64,000 bases of DNA from an uncultured Verrucomicrobiae bacterium (GTDB lineage: Bacteria > Verrucomicrobiota > Verrucomicrobiia > Chthoniobacterales > UBA10450), in contig CAWFGO010000001.1 in NCBI GenBank assembly GCA_963815455.1, positions 64,001 to 128,000 on the forward strand, read 5' to 3'. The position numbers and the translations under genes were made by a program. The notes under the pieces were generated by a model. It did no database searches. It saw nothing but the letters and a program-made list of their open reading frames with translations, and had not been told where the DNA came from. How positions within the stretch are numbered: position 1 is the first letter of the stretch; the number at the start of each line of letters is the position of its first letter. Below are positions 11,810 through 22,127 of this stretch, piece after piece.

Positions 11810-13110
<1,301 letters not shown>

Positions 13111-13120
13111 GGCGCAAATT

Positions 13121-13259
13121 ATGAATGACGAATGACGAATGTCTAATGACGAAGGAACGACGAAATCCGACTGGCCGAAACTGCCATGGACAGTTTGATG
13201 TCGTATCATGCGACATCAAACTGTCCTAAGCGCTTAACTTCATTCGGGCTTCGTCATTT
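13121..13259. repeat. Heptamer inverted array enclosing a 39-bp palindrome (13188-13226)
   Basis: atgacgaatgacgaat ... ggacagtttgatgtcgtatcatgcgacatcaaactgtcc ... ttcgtcatt. Confidence 0.8.
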
Positions 13260-13312: not shown

Positions 13313-14358
13313 GTGGAAACCCTCAGCCTTCTCGGCGTCGCCCTTGGTCTAGCGTATCTCTCCGGGATCAATCTTTATCTGACCGTCTTCGCCACCGGCC
13401 TGGCGATTCATTTCCACTGGATCACGCTCGCGCCCGCCTATCAATCGCTCGAAGTGCTGGGCGATCCCGTTGTGATCATCATCTCCGGCGTTCTCTATTT
13501 TCTCGAATTTTTTGCCGACAAAATTCCCTGGGTCGATTCGGCCTGGGACGCCGTCCACACCGTGATTCGGCCAATCGGCGGCGCGCTTCTCGCCATTCAG
13601 GTGCTCGGGCATCCCACTCCGGCTTTCGCAGTGATTGTCGGATTGCTTGGCGGCGGCACCAGCCTGGTTGCCCACACCGCCAAAGCTGCCACGCGTCTCA
13701 CCAGCAACACTTCGCCCGAGCCATTTTCGAACATCGCACTGAGTCTGGGAGAAGATGCGGCGGTTCTCGGCGGTCTGGCGCTCATCCATTACAATCCCCT
13801 GTTCGCTCTGTTCGTCTTCGCGCTTGCCATCGTCGGCTTCCTTTATTTTGCGCCAAAGATTTTGCGCGCTATGAAATCAAAAATCTGGCTGGCCTTGAAA
13901 AAGTTGAATGGCCCGGCCGATCTCGGCACTCCGGTCCAACTTCCTCTCGCCCTGCCGGCCCGGCTGGCCGCTGTGTTCAGTCGCGAAAATGTTCTTGGCG
14001 AAACGACCGCCTGGGCTGCGCCGTGCATCAGCGGACGCGGTCGCCGCATCCCGGCGAATCTTTTTGGCGCGCTGGTCGCCACCAATGAGGAGCCGAGAAA
14101 GCTGCGGTTCGTTGCGCGAAAAAATGGACGGCCATTTTCCCAGACCGATCGATCTCGAAGGCTCGATGGTCGCGCACGAGCCAAAATTTCTGTCCGAAAA
14201 TCTCATTATCTTCCCGGCCGCCGGCAAAGGTCCAAAATATCTTGTTCGTGTTTCCCCGGCCGCACGCCGCGATGGTGGAACGGATCGTGGAATATTTGCG
14301 CGAGCGTTTGGGTCGGCACGAGCCCGCGGAGGAAGCGGTGGTTGCGAGCGCAGAATAG
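13313..14358 (+). CDS. DUF4126 domain membrane protein (frameshifted in 3' part)
   Basis: SGINLY, LEFFADKIPWVDSAWDAVHT, SPEPFSN motifs; C-terminus continues in other frames. Confidence 0.85.
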
Positions 14359-14448
14359 GTGGATCGAGCAGTCTCCTTACTCGATGCTGAAAAAGAAACG
14401 CCTTCGGCGCCTGAATTAGCATCGCCCGACGGAGCGGTCGATCCACCT
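14357..14448. repeat. GGTGGATC...GATCCACC palindromic element (family E)
   Basis: Similar copies at 24360-24449 (inverted) and 54068-54154. Confidence 0.8.
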
Positions 14449-14482
14449 TCCCCTCTCACGCGCGCTGCGATACAACCGAAGC

Positions 14483-15869
14483 ATGCGAGGACAGCCTGCC
14501 GATCGCTACGCCGAAATGCGCGAATAGCGCCGCGTCCGCGAACGCGCTTTGTTTCCAACGTTGCGCACACCGAGCGAGCTGGAGCTGCAGGCGCGCTGGT
14601 TCGCCGGCGATTTCGGGCAAACAATTGTTTCCCCAGCCGGCGACAAGATCGACATTGTCCAGTTTGGCACCTGGAACCGCGAAGCCGGGCCGGATTTTCG
14701 CGACGCGGCGGTTCGTTGAACGGCGGCGAGCCGATTCGCGGCTGCATCGAGATCGATCTGGCCGATCGCAATTGGGAGACGCATGGCCACGCAACTAATC
14801 CGGCGTTCGAGGATGACCGTGCTCCACGTCTTCATTGATAAAAGCGAGCGCGAATTTTTTACTCGGACGAAATCGAATCGCGAAGTGCCTCAAGTGCGCA
14901 TCGATCTCGACACGTTGCCGGAAAACTTCAGCGCGAACATTCCGCTGGCGCGACCGGGGCGTTGCCAGGCGCCGTTGAGAAATCTGCCGGAAGATCAAGT
15001 CGTGAGCATTCTCGACGCGGCGGCCCAGTTTCGTTTAGACAAAAGGCGGCGCGCATCCGGCGCAAGATCGACAACTGCCAGTCCGGCTCGGACCATCGTT
15101 CGACGAAGTGCTGTTTCAGGAATGGCGGCGGCGCTCGGTTACAAGGAGAACAAACTGCCGTTCACTCTGCTGGCGCAACGTTTGCCGCTGAAGTTTTTGC
15201 GCGAAACAATGCGCTGACTGCGAAGCGCTGCTCTTCGGAGTCGGCGGTTTTCTGCAGACGCCCGATCTCGCGGTTTACCAAAATCGACGCGAGAATACGT
15301 GAGCAAATTATGGGACAGTTGGTGGCCTTATCGCGACGAATTCAAACAATTGATTGTGCCAAAAAAGTTTGGAAAATCAGTGGCACCCGACCGGTCAACC
15401 ATCCTCAGCGCCGTCTGGCGGCGTTGGCGGCTCTCGCATCAATGGCCAACGTTCGCGAAGCGTTTCGAACGGATAATCAACCGGCGTTGAAACATTTTCT
15501 CCTCGGCCTGCAACATTCGTTTTGGAATTTTCATTACACACTCACAGCAAAAGCGTCGGCGAAAGAGATGGCGTTGATTGGCGAATCGCGCGTCGCAGAC
15601 ATTTTGGCGAACGTCTTTTATCCCTTCGCGTTTTCCGAAGGGCCGCGATCTCTGGCACGATTTCGAGAAATTGCCGGCGCCGTCTGTCCAATCGCCGGCT
15701 CGCAACCGGCGCAACGCGTTTGTTCGGAGACGATCCACGCCGCAAGGAATTTCTCAAAACCGTCGCCGGTCAACAGGGCCTCCTCCAGATCTACGAAGAT
15801 TTCTGCCTGCAGGATAACTCCGATTGCGCGCAATGTCCGTTCCCCGAGCAAATGAAGAAATGGGTGTAG
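14483..15869 (+). CDS. DUF2851 family protein (multiple frameshifts)
   Basis: ELELQARW, WNREAGPDF, WETHGH..NP, ALGYKENK, RPVNHPQRRLAAL, QQGLLQIY..FC...CAQC fragments. Confidence 0.8.
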
Positions 15870-15925: not shown

Positions 15926-15986
15926 TTCTCCCGAAAATTGAATGTTGAACGTTGGACGTTGAGCGTTGAACGTTTTGCTCTTCCAC

Positions 15987-16598
15987 ATGCACCAGCTTTC
16001 TCGCAGGCAGAGCGCTTTCACCCTCATCGAGCTTCTGGTCGTCATCTCGATCATTATCATTTTGATGGGGCTGCTTTTTCCCGCGTTTCGCGGCGCCCAG
16101 GATCAGGCGAAAAAAGTCGAGGCCAAGAACGATCTCGCCCAAATCGTGAATGCGGTGAACGCGTTTTATGCGGAATACGGTCGTTACCCGACTGACTCGA
16201 CAATCGATATTACCTACGGACCAGCCGGCGTCGGCAATGATACGTTATTTAACGAGCTGCGTAGCACGGGCGCAATCATCAACACGCGAAAGATCGTTTT
16301 CCTCAACGCTCCCGATGTAAAAGATCCCGGCAACCCGCGGTCGGGCATTGGAACAACTGTCGGAGCCGGCCAATTTTTCGATGCCTGGGGAACGCCCTAC
16401 AGCATTTCGCTCGACGCCGATTACGACAATACGATCACGAATCCCTACGGCGCGGGTGGTGGAGCCGGCGCCGATCCGCTTCGGCAAGGGGTCCTGGCAA
16501 GGTCGTTCGGCAAAGACAAAGCAGCTGGCAACAAAGGCGACAACGTTTACAGGACCGCCGCCGGCGTCCAATCCGACGACGTGATTTCGTGGCAGTAA
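15987..16598 (+). CDS. Prepilin-type N-terminal cleavage/methylation protein
   Basis: AFTLIELLVVISII; D.WGTPY motif. Confidence 0.9.
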   Translation: MHQLSRRQSAFTLIELLVVISIIIILMGLLFPAFRGAQDQAKKVEAKNDLAQIVNAVNAFYAEYGRYPTDSTIDITYGPAGVGNDTLFNELRSTGAIINTRKIVFLNAPDVKDPGNPRSGIGTTVGAGQFFDAWGTPYSISLDADYDNTITNPYGAGGGAGADPLRQGVLARSFGKDKAAGNKGDNVYRTAAGVQSDDVISWQ

Positions 16599-16659: not shown

Positions 16660-17172
16660 GTGAGACGATCAGCAATCTGGTCGAGTTTCTGCGCAATTGG
16701 AGCGCTCCTTTTCGCGGCGCAGCTTTCCCGCGCTTCCGCGCAAATTGTCGAAATCGTGTCCAGCAACGATTGGAACGCCGCGGCGGTCCGCCTCGAGATC
16801 AGTCGCAGTCAGCGTCAGGTGACGTTGTATCGCGGCCCAATCCAGATCAAAAGCTATTCAGTGGCGATTGGTCGTCCCGGCTGGGAAACACCGACAGGAA
16901 AGTTTCACGTTCTCCAGATGCAAAAGAACCCGACTTGGAAGCATCCACTGACCGGCGAAATTTTTGGCGCGGGCGATGAAGGCAATGAGCTTGGGCAGTA
17001 TTGGATCGGATTTTTGACGACCAGCAAGGGCGCGATTGGATTTCACGATACGCCGCATCCGGAAACAGTTGGAAAAGCGGTGTCGCACGGTTGCGTGCGA
17101 ATGTTCGAGGACGATATCGCGGATTTGTTCCGGCAAGTCCGCGTCGGCACACTTGTCACCGTCGTGCCATAA
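16660..17172 (+). CDS. L,D-transpeptidase (YkuD family)
   Basis: VAIG..GWETPTG; IGFHDT...AVSHGCVRM. Confidence 0.9.
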   Translation: MRRSAIWSSFCAIGALLFAAQLSRASAQIVEIVSSNDWNAAAVRLEISRSQRQVTLYRGPIQIKSYSVAIGRPGWETPTGKFHVLQMQKNPTWKHPLTGEIFGAGDEGNELGQYWIGFLTTSKGAIGFHDTPHPETVGKAVSHGCVRMFEDDIADLFRQVRVGTLVTVVP

Positions 17173-17228: not shown

Positions 17229-19238
17229 TCACCACAACGCCTGGACCGGATTTGGCGGATGAATCAATTCCGGCGGCGGCGGACTATCTTTGAGATAATT
17301 ATCAACTGCTTCCTTGCTGGCGTCGTCGATGTTCTTGCCCGCCTCTCTTTCGGCCTCGTGCGCTTTTTCCGCGACTTTCTCTGCGTTACGCAAATTGCCC
17401 ATCGCGCTCTTACCGTCGTCGGTCTTGCTGAAATCCTGTTTAAAATCGTTCTCGAGCTTCTTCAATTGATTATCGAGTTTCTTAAACGCGTCTTTGTCGG
17501 CGCCCGTCGCGCCAGCAGCCTTGGCTTTCTTCTCGGCATCATCACGCTGACTTTTCAAGTCGTTATAGCTTTTCTTTTGATTGAGGAACTCCTTGAACTT
17601 CTCGTTGTAATTATCTAAAGCCTCGTCTTTGAGCTGATCGGTCCAGCCAGCCTTAAACTTCTTCTCCAGCCAATCGGCAAACGGATACTCTTTTAGAAAT
17701 TTGTCCCACCAATCGAATCGGTAAACGTAACCTTTTTTCTTTTTGCCCTTTTTATCCTTCTTATCCTTTTTCGGTTTCTCTTTTGTTCCGGGGCCGGGAG
17801 TTGGCGTGTCGTTTGAAATATTGACGGTTGTCCCTGTCGCCAATTCTTCCTCCTCCGGTTCTTCCAGTTCCTTGGCCTTGGTCGAAGTCAGTTCCACTTT
17901 TTCGAAGATCGTGTCGATGCCCTCGTCGACTTTCTTTTTCGTCTCCGGCTTCATCGGCCCTTTTTCTTCGATTTGTTTGTAGACGACTTTTTGAAGGTCT
18001 TCTTTCGTAGCCGGAGTTGAGCCCGTGATTTGGCAGATTTGTGGGTCGCTCCAAACGCTCCACTGAATCACGATGTCCTTCTGCTTTTGCTTATCGTGGT
18101 AGGGCAATTCCTTGAGCTTGCCTTCTTTTTGCAATTCCTCGGCGGCATCGTACTTGGAACTGGCCAGCCGAAGCATCTCGTTTGCATCCTTCGGCCGGAG
18201 ATGCGAGCCGGCCATTTGCGTCGGGCCCCCTTCATTGATCACCAGATCGCCAGTCTCGCCTTTGCCGACTGGCGGTTTGCTTCGGTCGAGACAAACCCCA
18301 TCCATCGGCACTGTTTTGCTCTGGTTCGGACCAAGCTGAACCATCTGTTCCTTCGGACAGGCGTAATGCTGATTCTTCCCGCTGCTAGATTCCAACACCA
18401 TCGCCGGAATGACAAAGCTGACCGCCTGGTTTGTTAGGTTTTGAATTCTGCAATCGGCAATGTGGCCGATGGTTGCGCCGGTCCCAGCCAGTTCCAAAGC
18501 GACGGTCTTCTGACCAAGCAGCAAAGAAAGCGTTTTCTCCGGAGCTTTCTCAGACGAGGGCGACGGAGATCGCGTTGGGCTCGGTGATCCCTCCAAAACT
18601 AATCCGGCCGATCCCCATTTTTTTTGCAAATCACCCAGAAACGCACCGAGTTTGGGGAAACTGTTCGGATCGGACACCATGCCTTCCGAGTTTTCCCATT
18701 CTCCCGTCTTAGGATTCCGTTGCTGCGTTTTCCAAACGTCGGTCTTCCCGTCCTCCCAACCTTCAAAGGAGTATGTGACCCCAGTCGCAGGATTTTTCCC
18801 GCTCGAATCGTAGGTTTGAAAACGATCGTAAAGCATCGTGCCATCTTTGGTTGAGAAAACCTGATCCGTCTTTGACTGAAGAGTCTTTCCATCTTTCAGA
18901 TAATTGTAAGTGGTGACCGTTGTTCGATTCGTGTTTGGGTTCGACTGAACAAACACCGCCATCGCCAGCTTTTCCTGTTTCTTTCCAAATTTGACCCACT
19001 CGATCTTGGTAAGGTTTCCGTCCTTGTCCCGAGTCGTCCGCTTCTCACCAGTGCCAACAAAGGGCCCACTTTGAATACCGTCTTTACCGAAACTCACCCT
19101 TTCACTCGCGGTCGTGCCGCCGTCCAGGTTTTTTGTAACTTTCGGTTCGTCGCCGCAAACGGAAATGACGAGGCCAAACCAGCTCAGAGCGAGCAACACC
19201 CGCCATGCTCCACCGGATGCAGGGCTATTTGAACTCAT
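17229..19238 (-). CDS. Secreted multidomain hypothetical protein with a domain shared with the upstream gene
   Basis: Signal peptide, beta-rich N region, SP linker, shared domain GTGATIGHIAD...GVCLDRSKPP...QWSVW, Lys-rich helical C-terminus. Confidence 0.8.
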   Translation of the reverse strand: MSSNSPASGGAWRVLLALSWFGLVISVCGDEPKVTKNLDGGTTASERVSFGKDGIQSGPFVGTGEKRTTRDKDGNLTKIEWVKFGKKQEKLAMAVFVQSNPNTNRTTVTTYNYLKDGKTLQSKTDQVFSTKDGTMLYDRFQTYDSSGKNPATGVTYSFEGWEDGKTDVWKTQQRNPKTGEWENSEGMVSDPNSFPKLGAFLGDLQKKWGSAGLVLEGSPSPTRSPSPSSEKAPEKTLSLLLGQKTVALELAGTGATIGHIADCRIQNLTNQAVSFVIPAMVLESSSGKNQHYACPKEQMVQLGPNQSKTVPMDGVCLDRSKPPVGKGETGDLVINEGGPTQMAGSHLRPKDANEMLRLASSKYDAAEELQKEGKLKELPYHDKQKQKDIVIQWSVWSDPQICQITGSTPATKEDLQKVVYKQIEEKGPMKPETKKKVDEGIDTIFEKVELTSTKAKELEEPEEEELATGTTVNISNDTPTPGPGTKEKPKKDKKDKKGKKKKGYVYRFDWWDKFLKEYPFADWLEKKFKAGWTDQLKDEALDNYNEKFKEFLNQKKSYNDLKSQRDDAEKKAKAAGATGADKDAFKKLDNQLKKLENDFKQDFSKTDDGKSAMGNLRNAEKVAEKAHEAEREAGKNIDDASKEAVDNYLKDSPPPPELIHPPNPVQALW

Positions 19239-20758
19239 GGCTTCGGCTCTTCCTTTTTTTCGTCGACCGGCTGGTTTTCGCCTTTCGCCTCTTTCCCGGT
19301 CAGCTCAACGTTCTGGAAGAGATCGGGCGTCTCTAGTTCTTTCGCCTTCTCGCCCGTGATCTCAATCTTTTCAAAGATCGTGTCAATGCCCTTGTCGATC
19401 TTCTTCTTGGTGGCGGAGCTTGGTGTCCCTTTTTCCTCAACCTGTTTGTAGACGACCTTCGTCAGGTCTTCTTTTGTTGCCGCCGGCGTTTTTGAGATCT
19501 CGGAAATTCGCGGGTTGGTCCAGGTGGTCCATTGAAGCAAAATTTCCCTCTGCTCCTTTTTGTTTTTGTAGGGAAAATCTTTGAGCTCACCGCTTTTCTG
19601 AACCTGGTCCACGGCGTCGTAAATCGACTGGCAAATTCGCAGCAAACCGCCGGCGGCCTTCGCCGTAATATGACAATCAGAATGTTGCGCGACGCCGGGA
19701 TCGACCGTGTTCAGCACGAGTTCGCCGCTGCCGCCTTTTTCCACCGGCGGCTTGTCCCGATTAATACAAACGCCTTCCAACGGGACTATCTTGGTTTGAT
19801 GAGGCGTCAGCGTGACCTCCTGCGGCTGGGGACAGGCGTAGTCCTGGTTCTTGCCGCTCTTCGATTCAAGGAGGAGGGCCGGGATGACAAAAACCAGCGA
19901 GCCATCCGACAAGTTTTGCAGTTTAAGGTCGGCCACATGTCCGATCGTTTCGCCGGTGCCAATCGTTTCCACTTTAACTTTCTCGGGCTCCTTCCCACTT
20001 CCATTCGAATGCGACAACACATCCATCGGCTGAGCGGTAATAAAGAGGAGCAGGTTGCGCTTGTGTGGGGGATCTTTCACGAACAGCCCGCCCAGCACGG
20101 GAATTTGTCCTAGCCCGATCGTAACATCGTTAGTCGATTTCTGTTCGTCCTGGGCCCGCTGCTGGGGTTCATTTCCTGTTACCGACTGAATCCTGGGATT
20201 GAACGTCATTTCCATGCTGCCATCTGCGTTCACCCGCGGCTTGATCTCCAGAATGAGCCCCCCATCTGAAAATCCGACCGATTGGGGGACGTAAACGTTC
20301 GCCGGCTGATTGCTCGGAATCGTAATAACCGGTTGCGCAATTACGTTGACGCCCTTCTCGTGATCGAACGCCTTCAGAATCGCGTCAGATTGCTCGCGCG
20401 TGAGCAGGCCAGTGAGGTTGATGTTGCCCGGTTCCGCATCGTCGGGGAAAAACCGCTGGTCAATGATTTTAGTTGAGGGAGACGCGCCCAGACCCAAAGC
20501 CGTCGCCTGCGACGAAGAGAGGTTCGACGCATCGGAAGACAATTTCCCAAGCGCATCAGCAATGCGCGCGTCGATCCCCAATTCGCGCGTCGTGTTTCGA
20601 CTCACCTCGACAAGCTTGGCTTCGATCTGTACCTGCGGCGTCAACGTTTCGGCAAAGGTCAATTGGCCGAAGAAGAGGCAGCTGGACGCAACAATGGTGC
20701 CGGCGGCCATGAACAGGCGCACAACCGCGATCCGAACGTGCGATGTTGTCGCCATCAT
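19235..20758 (-). CDS. Secretin-like domain fused to unknown domain
   Basis: PQVQIEAKLVEV..RELGID, IAQPVITIPSNQPA, GLILEIKPRV, LGQIPVLGGLF, LLLFIT; C-half paralogous to 17229-19238. Confidence 0.75.
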   Translation of the reverse strand: MMATTSHVRIAVVRLFMAAGTIVASSCLFFGQLTFAETLTPQVQIEAKLVEVSRNTTRELGIDARIADALGKLSSDASNLSSSQATALGLGASPSTKIIDQRFFPDDAEPGNINLTGLLTREQSDAILKAFDHEKGVNVIAQPVITIPSNQPANVYVPQSVGFSDGGLILEIKPRVNADGSMEMTFNPRIQSVTGNEPQQRAQDEQKSTNDVTIGLGQIPVLGGLFVKDPPHKRNLLLFITAQPMDVLSHSNGSGKEPEKVKVETIGTGETIGHVADLKLQNLSDGSLVFVIPALLLESKSGKNQDYACPQPQEVTLTPHQTKIVPLEGVCINRDKPPVEKGGSGELVLNTVDPGVAQHSDCHITAKAAGGLLRICQSIYDAVDQVQKSGELKDFPYKNKKEQREILLQWTTWTNPRISEISKTPAATKEDLTKVVYKQVEEKGTPSSATKKKIDKGIDTIFEKIEITGEKAKELETPDLFQNVELTGKEAKGENQPVDEKKEEPKP

Positions 20759-21126
20759 TACTCTTTGGGCGATGTCGTCGCAGAATTATCCGATGAGGCT
20801 ACGTTCTTTGCTTTCTTTCCCGTTAACTTCACACCGATAAAAGGATTGGATTCGCCCGTGTTGGTCTCATTCTTTTTGGTTCTGGATCTATCGTGACTCT
20901 GGGAAGTGGACGATCCTTCCGACACAGCAAAAGGATCGGCCTCGCGCTTGCGCTGACCCACACCGCCAAGATCGACACTCCCGCCAATTCCGACGCCGCC
21001 GTGGCCGCCGCCATGCCCGCCCTCTTTCCCCTTACCGCCCTTGCCGCCGCACCCGCCAAAAACGTTTCCGCTGAAAATCAAAACGCCCGCCAGAACACAG
21101 GCAACGAATCTGGTTGTTTGTTTCAT
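20758..21126 (-). CDS. Small secreted Gly-rich hypothetical protein
   Basis: Signal peptide, strong RBS (aggagaaagga), TAATG overlap with next gene. Confidence 0.7.
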   Translation of the reverse strand: MKQTTRFVACVLAGVLIFSGNVFGGCGGKGGKGKEGGHGGGHGGVGIGGSVDLGGVGQRKREADPFAVSEGSSTSQSHDRSRTKKNETNTGESNPFIGVKLTGKKAKNVASSDNSATTSPKE

Positions 21127-21142
21127 GGTGATGTCCTTTCTC

Positions 21143-21673
21143 CTATTTGGCCAGAGAGGTCAGCGGCAGGACAACCGCTTGTCCGCCCGGTAACACAATC
21201 TGGAGTTTCTTTTCGGCCGTGAAAATTTCCTTCGGCCAATCGACTTTTGTGTAAGCGTAATCCCCTTTCGGTCCGAAAATCTTGTTCAGGTTAACGCCGA
21301 CGCCGGCGCCGTGAAGCCCCGAGGTGCCGCCGTATCCACCAACCGATACCGGGAGGCCGGTATTCTCTTCATGTCCCACTTTGCGATCCTCGCGAAACAC
21401 TGGTTTCGCCGCGGCGCCGCTCTTGTCGATCAACGCGATTTGCCCGGGCTTAATCAGCTTCTTATCCGCGCCGGAAACACGAATGATGATTCGCGTATTC
21501 TCCGGCTTGGCTTGATGCAATGTGTCGCCGATGGTTTCGATTGTGTAAGCGCCGCGTTTGGCCGTGTTATGCACCGGTGTGAGCGTGCCGCCCTTTCGCG
21601 AGCCCGCCTCGACCTGAAAATCGACAATCAATCCGGCAAGGAACAATGCGACGGCAATAGATACTTTTCTCAT
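21143..21673 (-). CDS. Secreted hypothetical protein, first gene of operon
   Basis: GGAGGT RBS, signal peptide MRKVSIAVALFLAGLIVDFQVEA. Confidence 0.75.
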   Translation of the reverse strand: MRKVSIAVALFLAGLIVDFQVEAGSRKGGTLTPVHNTAKRGAYTIETIGDTLHQAKPENTRIIIRVSGADKKLIKPGQIALIDKSGAAAKPVFREDRKVGHEENTGLPVSVGGYGGTSGLHGAGVGVNLNKIFGPKGDYAYTKVDWPKEIFTAEKKLQIVLPGGQAVVLPLTSLAK

Positions 21674-21952: not shown

Positions 21953-22023
21953 GCGGGTGTAGTTCAATGGTAGAACGGCAGCTTCCCAAGCTGCATACGG
22001 GAGTTCGATTCTCCTCACCCGCT
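21953..22023 (+). tRNA. tRNA-Gly (CCC)
   Basis: Acceptor gcgggtg/cacccgc, anticodon arm gcagc-ttCCCaa-gctgc, T-loop gttcgatt; CCA not seen (tca follows). Confidence 0.95.
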
Positions 22024-22127
22024 CACTTTGCTTTCATCGCCGCCGATTTGGAGTCGCTCGCACAACGTCCGCGAAGTGCTCAAGGTCGGATGACTCCGCG
22101 TCCTTCGTGACCTTTGTCGAGGTTCCA

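Follow-up and report, generated by a model that had tools for sequence, protein, structure and literature searches.

Self-forming thioesters between a cysteine and a glutamine have so far been described from adhesins of Gram-positive bacteria only, judging from the accessible portions of the papers on thioester domains (TEDs) that we cite. In the available text of Walden et al. (PMC4450167), TEDs are defined by three motifs ([YFL]C-Phi-zeta, Phi-Q-zeta-Phi-Phi, and TQxx-Phi-W), and the thioester is said not to be a structural determinant of these domains. The accessible part of a 2026 paper (PMC13685950) still assigns TEDs to Gram-positive phyla, and neither "Gram-negative" nor "permut" appears in it. 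In the ARPP proteins, a beta-barrel holds a Cys and a Gln that are both absolutely conserved, and a role in cross-linking sugars has been proposed (PMC9503650, in the part available). Here we describe a cassette of four genes on the minus strand (17229-21673) of a 64,000-nucleotide stretch of DNA from an uncultured Verrucomicrobiae bacterium (contig CAWFGO010000001.1; this whole stretch is "the window", and all positions are given in it). Genes 3 and 4 of this cassette encode a shared domain with conserved Cys and Gln residues, and in gene 3 this domain is preceded by part of a secretin.

We propose, from sequence comparisons and a structural model, that the shared domain is best read as a circularly permuted TED-like module for covalent capture that has been shuffled among dozens of N-terminal and C-terminal partners. 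The four-gene cassette is real, undescribed, and modular; it probably serves covalent capture, and its mini-secretin fusion is optional. We found no paper that describes the shared-domain family, a permuted TED, or a secretin fused to a TED, although most subscription journals lay outside our search.

The open reading frames (ORFs) and their junctions are as given in a preliminary description of this DNA: from gene 1 to gene 4, there is a 16-bp gap with AGGA/GGAG, then TAATG, and then ATGA (Table 1). All four reading frames are intact in the window. The N-terminus of each protein includes a hydrophobic stretch (mean Kyte-Doolittle value of 2.0-3.0 for the best 11 residues), which agrees with the signal-like N-termini that had been noticed; export signals were judged by this crude hydropathy test. 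The cassette proteins are also rich in lysine, as had been claimed: they contain 8-13% Lys (the 96th to 99.9th percentile of the 2262 ORFs in the genome), versus 3.5-4.8% in three neighboring proteins.

The domain of about 210 amino acids that the preliminary description had seen in both genes 3 and 4 is evident from their alignment (residues 261-473 of gene 3 and 246-456 of gene 4; 53.5% identity over 213 amino acids, E = 4e-77). There is no further copy in the genome, and the wider family comprises 622 clusters at 50% identity, including a planctomycete locus (L033), proteins in records named as Bacteroidota, and tandem two-copy proteins. Just two glycines, Gln305, Cys331, and Trp413 (gene 3 numbering) never vary among 193 distinct near-complete copies (193/193). 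Gln409 is kept in 189 of these copies, and the Thr that precedes QxxxW is not conserved. The Gln and the Cys are invariant in all 130 barrel units that we compared, which include distant relatives at about 25% identity. A second cysteine (Cys309) is present in just 159 of the 193 copies, so a disulfide does not account for Cys331. The sequences around these residues vary: the Gln motif takes the forms NQDYA, NQHYA, and YQPYI; the Cys motif is VC or IC in the window's clade (GVC) and YC or FC in distant relatives (GYCxD or GFCxD); and the helix motif is QWTTW or QQTFW.

All three TED motifs are present in the shared domain, but in the order Gln-Cys-QxxxW rather than the Cys-QxxxW-Gln of TEDs. 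The Gln lies 26 residues ahead of the Cys, and there is no Gln motif C-terminal to the helical subdomain, where TEDs have theirs. The AlphaFold model of the domain has a mean confidence (pLDDT) of 95.3 and consists of a beta subdomain (residues 1-93 of the model) and a helical subdomain (108-217). Cys73 of the model ends the strand at 64-73, Gln151 and Trp155 both lie in the helix at 142-156, and the domain finishes in a helix. When we compared this model to 48,161 chains, the only rows in the top 50 that spanned both subdomains were four TEDs: 5a0g (CpTIE-TED; Z = 6.0, 125 residues aligned, root-mean-square deviation or rmsd of 3.5), 5dcq (FNE; Z = 5.4, 133 aligned, rmsd 4.0), 2xi9 (Cpa; Z = 5.4, 129 aligned, rmsd 4.0), and 6fwv (BaTIE; Z = 5.4, 112 aligned, rmsd 3.7). 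Every other row covered 95 residues or fewer. The alignment to 5a0g stops at residue 252, short of the thioester-forming Gln267, which is expected if the Gln strand is permuted.

Several results weigh against this assignment. The TED scores (Z = 5.4-6.0) are under the noise level of the tool, which is about 8, and are tied with those of unrelated beta-sandwiches. Foldseek gave nothing in PDB or BFVD for the model at E of 0.001 or better, and a second look with VIA found no TED; these two results leave a TED fold possible. In the model, Gln47 is two residues ahead of a short strand instead of within it. Searches of Pfam and NCBIfam with 48 aligned members gave no match of the shared domain to any family, TED included, and nothing in the window's genome matched PF08341 above the cut-off. 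The best score for PF08341 was from a distant relative, P0245 (14.5 bits, versus a cut-off of 22), which is also the only one of 20 distant relatives to have the Pfam TED as its best match (E = 0.05, on the QWxxW helix). Profiles of the core domain matched only designed helical repeats and other noise among PDB sequences. Also, no surface anchor is evident in the cassette proteins, unlike in the Gram-positive TED proteins.

The proteins with this domain are modular. Among 197 single-copy proteins, 184 start with Met, and 162 of these have a hydrophobic N-terminus. The 148 N-terminal extensions of these proteins make up 37 clusters and the 115 C-terminal ones 38. With 28 members, the secretin is the largest of the N-terminal clusters, in a sample that was enriched by the use of gene 3 as a query. 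The C-terminal module of gene 4 is also fused to some of the secretin forms and to some gene-2 proteins. A few core-domain proteins (P0198, P0218, P0244, and P0264) carry modules of the reprolysin-like metallopeptidase or eCIS-core kind, and P0264 has, by eye, a papain-like Cys/His pattern.

To see how constant each part is, we collected 96 loci by shared-domain patterns, 17 from GTDB genomes and 79 from metagenomes. The metagenome set was the best 80 of 98 matches, ranked by likeness to gene 3, which biases it towards secretin forms; many of the 96 loci are on short contigs and some are near-copies. (The tallies include three unpublished genomes, G003, G008, and G015, and no positive claim depends on these.) By profile searches, the shared domain is present at all 96 loci, gene 2 at 55, gene 1 at 51, and the secretin part at 6. 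The operon is thus not built around a secretin, contrary to what had been proposed: the shared domain, not the secretin, is its constant part. The core set of the cassette is made up of genes 1 and 2 together with the shared domain, which is present in one to four copies. The picture is similar in a set of 201 whole genomes from the family, of which the window's own is one: 11 contain the shared domain and 10 contain gene 1, and those 10 all carry the shared domain as well. The core domain and gene 1 are thus found together, with gene 2 following gene 1. The titles of the related records name Chthoniobacterales, Ca. Udaeobacter, and Verrucomicrobia.

The neighbors of the cassette vary. Among the 96 loci, we found a pilin at 37, PBP1A at 20, and an L,D-transpeptidase at 8. 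Eleven loci have PBP1A and a pilin on either side of the cassette (L020, L022, L024, L027, L032, L060, L061, L072, L074, L075, and L099); by eye, all 11 contain genes 1 and 2 and none contains a secretin. In four relatives that lack the cassette (G011, G032, G034, and G035), the pilin and PBP1A matches are only 138-312 bp apart, which makes the cassette an accessory insertion at a variable site. Overall, this survey of gene neighborhoods, which the preliminary description had suggested, found syntenic relatives, and the analysis as a whole placed the proteins neither in a described system nor among decayed fragments.

Given this evidence, we favor, with moderate confidence, an accessory cassette whose proteins are likely exported by Sec and whose core domain would form a Cys-Gln thioester and then acylate an amine on a target. 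The internal thioester would form spontaneously, between Cys331 and Gln305 in gene 3 and between Cys316 and Gln290 in gene 4, with the Gln strand relocated from the C-terminus to the N-terminus relative to TEDs. The acyl group of the Gln would then be passed to a Lys or to a cell-wall amine on the target, giving a covalent bond, or "harpoon," as in Gram-positive adhesins. The swappable flanking modules would decide the position, valency, reach, or target. Among these modules, the mini-secretin might oligomerise or dock on the cell's own secretins and so cluster several reactive domains, without exporting anything as a pore. A dedicated adaptor or chaperone role might fall to genes 1 and 2. Any export beyond the periplasm would go through type II secretion (T2SS) or type IV pilus (T4P) machinery encoded elsewhere: the genome contains three full-length secretins, 10 matches to the T2SSE family, and 6 matches to T2SSF in three ORFs.

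If this is correct, then a permuted TED-like domain would bring covalent adhesion chemistry to environmental Gram-negative bacteria, including soil Verrucomicrobiota and members of other phyla. The fusion in gene 3 is also a case of a secretin core that is reused as a passenger module, and we found no paper on such reuse. As a minimal secretin that occurs in nature, the secretin part of gene 3 could help to establish what a ring needs in order to form.

The alternative that fares best is that the Cys and the Gln work as a catalytic pair in an enzyme of ARPP-1-like or transglutaminase/amidase-like type, which would act on sugars, the cell wall, or proteins without a stable thioester, and whose variable modules would serve for targeting. 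The N-terminal barrel aligns weakly with ARPP-1 over 56 columns, with Gln on Gln and Cys on Cys (hhalign E = 0.0045 with nine ARPP sequences; 0 of 100 column shuffles scored as high; the lead from ESM scored 0.81). This is a further point against a TED-like domain, and the sugar cross-linking that has been proposed for ARPP would fit an enzyme. On the other hand, no His or Asp that might complete a triad is as invariant as the Gln, the Cys, and the Trp, and the helical half of the domain bears the QxxPhiW motif of TEDs and aligns with them. Also, the function of ARPP is only proposed, and its Cys-Gln pair could also be a thioester. We consider an enzyme to be unlikely. Neither the 48 members nor the window's genome had any match to PF20208 (ARPP-1). 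In the ARPP-1 proteins at L113-L120 and L123, the conserved Gln and Cys line up with the two candidate thioester residues, and from this alignment ARPP-1 may likewise be a Cys-Gln thioester protein.

It is also conceivable that the domain is a TED-derived scaffold that keeps the Cys and the Gln for its structure or for non-covalent binding, in which case the proteins would be polymorphic surface decoys or adhesins that form no covalent bond. The highly variable, Lys-rich, and low-complexity appendages would fit this, and the weak structural scores leave room for substantial divergence. However, a lone invariant Cys and an invariant Gln at about 25% identity are hard to explain by structure, especially as the thioester does not determine the structure of TEDs (PMC4450167, in the text available). 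We find a purely non-covalent role doubtful.

This leaves the secretin part of gene 3, which the preliminary description had recognized from its motifs. The secretin-like domain is genuine and is under purifying selection. It matches Pfam's Secretin family (PF00263) at 30.7 bits, above the cut-off of 27.5 and far under the NCBIfam cut-offs for full-length secretins. It also aligns with the genome's own PilQ-like secretin, P0163 (hhalign probability of 98%), and with solved structures of PilQ and GspD in PDB (E = 1e-12). In the three unsaturated pairs, the ratio of nonsynonymous to synonymous substitution rates (dN/dS) was 0.18, 0.29, and 0.32 for the secretin part and 0.08-0.12 for the shared domain. 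Of the 21 secretin pairs, 8 were saturated, and dN/dS was under 0.4 in all 13 that could be computed. From these values, together with the open frames in the window, we reject a decayed fragment.

Much of a secretin is missing from gene 3. The core starts at residue 37, straight after the signal-like segment, so that domains N0-N3 (and thus N3) are absent. Both gate regions have shortened hairpins, one hairpin has been lost, there is a 26-residue deletion near the amphipathic loop, and the shared domain occupies the place of the C-terminal S-domain. The window's copy retains an amphipathic-loop-like motif (LGQIPVLGGLF). Among the secretin fusion proteins, of which there are at least 30, 8 match the amphipathic-loop pattern, 14 match the GxTxxxGG strand pattern, 8 match neither, and none matches both; the genome's own secretin matches both. 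(By eye, the fusion P0193 has traces of both.)

We also examined a tree of 113 core domains (a quick IQ-TREE version with 113 of the 197 rows; among the secretin-free rows within the secretin clade, some are fragments). A single clade of 31 rows (SH-aLRT support of 98) holds all 19 of the secretin-fused rows, intermixed with 12 secretin-free rows, and within this clade the secretin label was gained or lost at least 6 times. A single mixed clade fits one capture of the secretin, followed by losses or swaps. In the part of PMC8134430 that is available, a mitochondrial GspD without N-domains still oligomerises in membranes, so, by analogy, gene 3 may form a ring.

In spite of this analogy, the true homology and purifying selection of the secretin part, the existence of at least 30 fusions, and the loop-like motif in the window's copy, we think it very improbable that gene 3 is a stand-alone outer-membrane ring for displaying or exporting the remaining three proteins, a reading that builds on the scaffold of the preliminary description, because the secretin is missing from 90 of the 96 loci and from all 11 loci bounded by PBP1A and pilin, no fusion of the 30 has both patterns, the label was repeatedly gained or lost, complete secretin machineries are encoded elsewhere in the cell, and parts used for pore assembly are lacking, including N3, which is described as required in the portion of the literature available. 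On the distribution and the missing parts we reject a new secretion system, which the cassette likely is not; the secretin is only one attachment among many that can be exchanged. Of the suggestion of a candidate new system, what holds is a real, syntenic, and undescribed cassette, and its core is the shared domain with TED motifs. It is correct that the cassette itself contains no ATPase, platform protein, or pilin (by profile scans), but a pilin-like gene lies 630 bp away, and the T2SSE and T2SSF matches are elsewhere in the genome.

Turning to the small proteins, gene 1 has a signal-like N-terminus and a predicted immunoglobulin-like beta-sandwich, with a low-confidence Gly-rich loop (model pLDDT of 78.7). 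Its best fold matches are generic (CrdA, Z = 7.9; DUF4426, Z = 7.5), and we found no family for it (ESM matches scored 0.82 or less). It is a constant, single-copy partner of the shared domain and is strongly conserved (65-86% identity). Gene 2 is secreted-like and mostly low-complexity, and in an alignment it has two conserved motifs: a Gly-rich one that is predicted to be a strand (GVGxxxDLGGxGxR..E..PF) and FxxVxLTGxxAK. The pattern [FW]xx[VI]x[LIM]Txxx[AG]K has only four matches in a six-frame scan of the genome as a whole, and all of them are inside the cassette (Table 1), which suggests a shared docking or regulatory tag. Two of the four are the last helix of the Cys-Gln domain, and gene 2 has a copy of this helix. 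A complex prediction for the core domain, the motif region of gene 2, and gene 1 scored 0.01 and weighs neither way.

In a planctomycete locus (L033:7765-8307), two core-domain genes have upstream of them a small gene with this motif at its end (WKGIEMTGPGAK), so a partner with a free helix is conserved across phyla. Many homologs of gene 2 (at L017, L018, L024, L032, L035, and others) start with a Cys-rich segment, CPCxPCxCxPCxC, followed by a His/Gly-rich stretch; the window's gene 2 keeps one Cys of this segment. It is possible that the segment is a metal-binding site or a disulfide knot.

A bolder extension of the TED-like proposal, which we regard as a long shot, is that the secretin-thioester fusion is a secretin mimic with a covalent harpoon. 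It would co-assemble with or cap a T4P or T2SS secretin, either the cell's own or a neighbor's, or form its own ring, and the domain would lock onto anything that binds or goes through there, for example a pilus, a phage, or a protein of a competitor. The free helix of gene 2 would arm or shield the reactive site, and ARPP-1 would also be a thioester protein, within a broad Gram-negative superfamily for covalent capture.

In the window, the cassette lies between an L,D-transpeptidase (YkuD) and tRNA-Gly(CCC), as first described. We reject insertion at the 3' end of the tRNA, as the cassette is at the 5' side of tRNA-Gly and the GC content at third codon positions is unremarkable (9th to 65th percentile). 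The pilin-like gene is a conserved neighbor of tRNA-Gly/PBP1A in the family whether or not the cassette is present (29 of 36 family genomes have matches); as the pilin-PBP1A pair persists at empty sites, a functional tie of the cassette to this gene is not supported. In L076 and L102, the L,D-transpeptidase lies between cassette genes, and its gene would not fit into the short stretches at the four empty sites; we speculate that it might anchor cassette proteins to peptidoglycan. We set aside a role in anti-phage defense, as PADLOC gave no match for any of the four proteins. Scans for promoters and terminators were at chance level.

Two other loci are informative about turnover. Relative G023 has three gene-4-like paralogs, and at L015:10859-12357 one of them is broken up into three overlapping frames, by frameshifts or assembly errors, and so we see local duplication and turnover there. 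At L023:6231-9381, a copy of the cassette is beside genes that are, by eye, tyrosine-recombinase-like and OmpA-like, in place of PBP1A; this setting suggests that the cassette is mobile. Within the window, serS and its neighbors (11810-13209 and 13313-15855) are split into overlapping frames, probably by long-read assembly frameshifts; the cassette is intact.

Table 1. Features of the cassette and its surroundings, by window position.
Feature	Position	Strand	Basis or remark
Gene 1 (P0001), 176 aa	21143-21673	-	ORF list
Gene 2 (P0002), 122 aa	20758-21126	-	ORF list
Gene 3, 507 aa	19235-20758	-	ORF list
Gene 4, 669 aa	17229-19238	-	ORF list
Shared Cys-Gln domain (beta-barrel and helical subdomain), gene 3 residues 259-478	19325-19984	-	Candidate circularly permuted thioester domain
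Gln305 codon, gene 3 (NQDYA)	19844-19846	-	Candidate thioester glutamine
Cys331 codon, gene 3 (GVCIN)	19766-19768	-	Candidate thioester cysteine
QWTTW, gene 3 (Gln409-Trp413)	19520-19534	-	Central helix; matches TED QxxPhiW motif
Second Cys-Gln domain copy, gene 4 residues 246-461	17856-18503	-	Gln290, Cys316, Gln392/Trp396
Truncated secretin core, gene 3 residues 37-250	20009-20650	-	Optional module; Pfam PF00263
Gene 4 N-terminal module (about residues 30-215)	18594-19151	-	Thr/Lys-rich, beta-repeat-like by eye; no family match; belongs to one of the 37 N-terminal clusters
Gene 4 C-terminal module, Lys/Asp/Ala-rich	17229-17738	-	Commonest C-terminal cluster (40 of 115)
Cassette motif, gene 2 copy	20806-20841	-	Six-frame genome scan
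Cassette motif, gene 3 copies	19340-19375, 19283-19318	-	
Cassette motif, gene 4 copy	17871-17906	-	
L,D-transpeptidase (YkuD)	16660-17172	+	Pfam match; convergent with cassette
Pilin-like gene	15966-16598	+	N_methyl and T2SSG matches; 630 bp from gene 4
tRNA-Gly(CCC)	21953-22024	+	Divergent from gene 1, 279 bp away

Compared to known secretins, the gene 3 domain has the core beta-strand order of the T4P and T2SS secretins (PilQ and GspD; PF00263) and is nearest to the PilQ type. It differs from them in being only about 200 amino acids long, without N0-N3 or an S-domain and with shortened gates; in the loss, among the fusions, of a barrel strand or the amphipathic loop; in its place ahead of a Cys-Gln domain; and in being dispensable. 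The truncated mitochondrial GspD (PMC8134430, in the part available) is also a secretin cut to part of the C-domain, with no N-domains or S-domain, but it keeps the amphipathic loop and both transmembrane strands, has GspE/F/G partners, and carries no fused cargo.

ARPP-1 (PF20208), like the shared domain, has a barrel in which the conserved Gln comes before the conserved Cys, at a similar spacing. In the available text of PMC9503650, however, the ARPP barrel is inserted in a beta-meander sheet, whereas the cassette's barrel is followed by a TED-like helical subdomain.

The closest comparison is to the TEDs, both class I (CpTIE-TED, 5A0G; Cpa, 2XI9; FNE, 5DCQ; and SfbI; PF08341) and class II (BaTIE, 6FWV). 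Like them, the shared domain has a predicted beta-barrel and helical subdomain, an invariant Cys and Gln, and the QxxPhiW helix motif, and it occurs in secreted modular proteins whose linkers are Pro/Thr-rich. It differs in that its motif order is permuted, it is usually in the middle of the protein, it scores below all hidden Markov model (HMM) cut-offs, and we saw no LPXTG or isopeptide stalk in the cassette proteins. It is found in Verrucomicrobiota, in a planctomycete, and, by record names, in Bacteroidota, while the published TEDs, in the sources available, are from Gram-positive bacteria. The shared domain likely works like a TED, yet it is not a member of that family by motif order or by HMM score.

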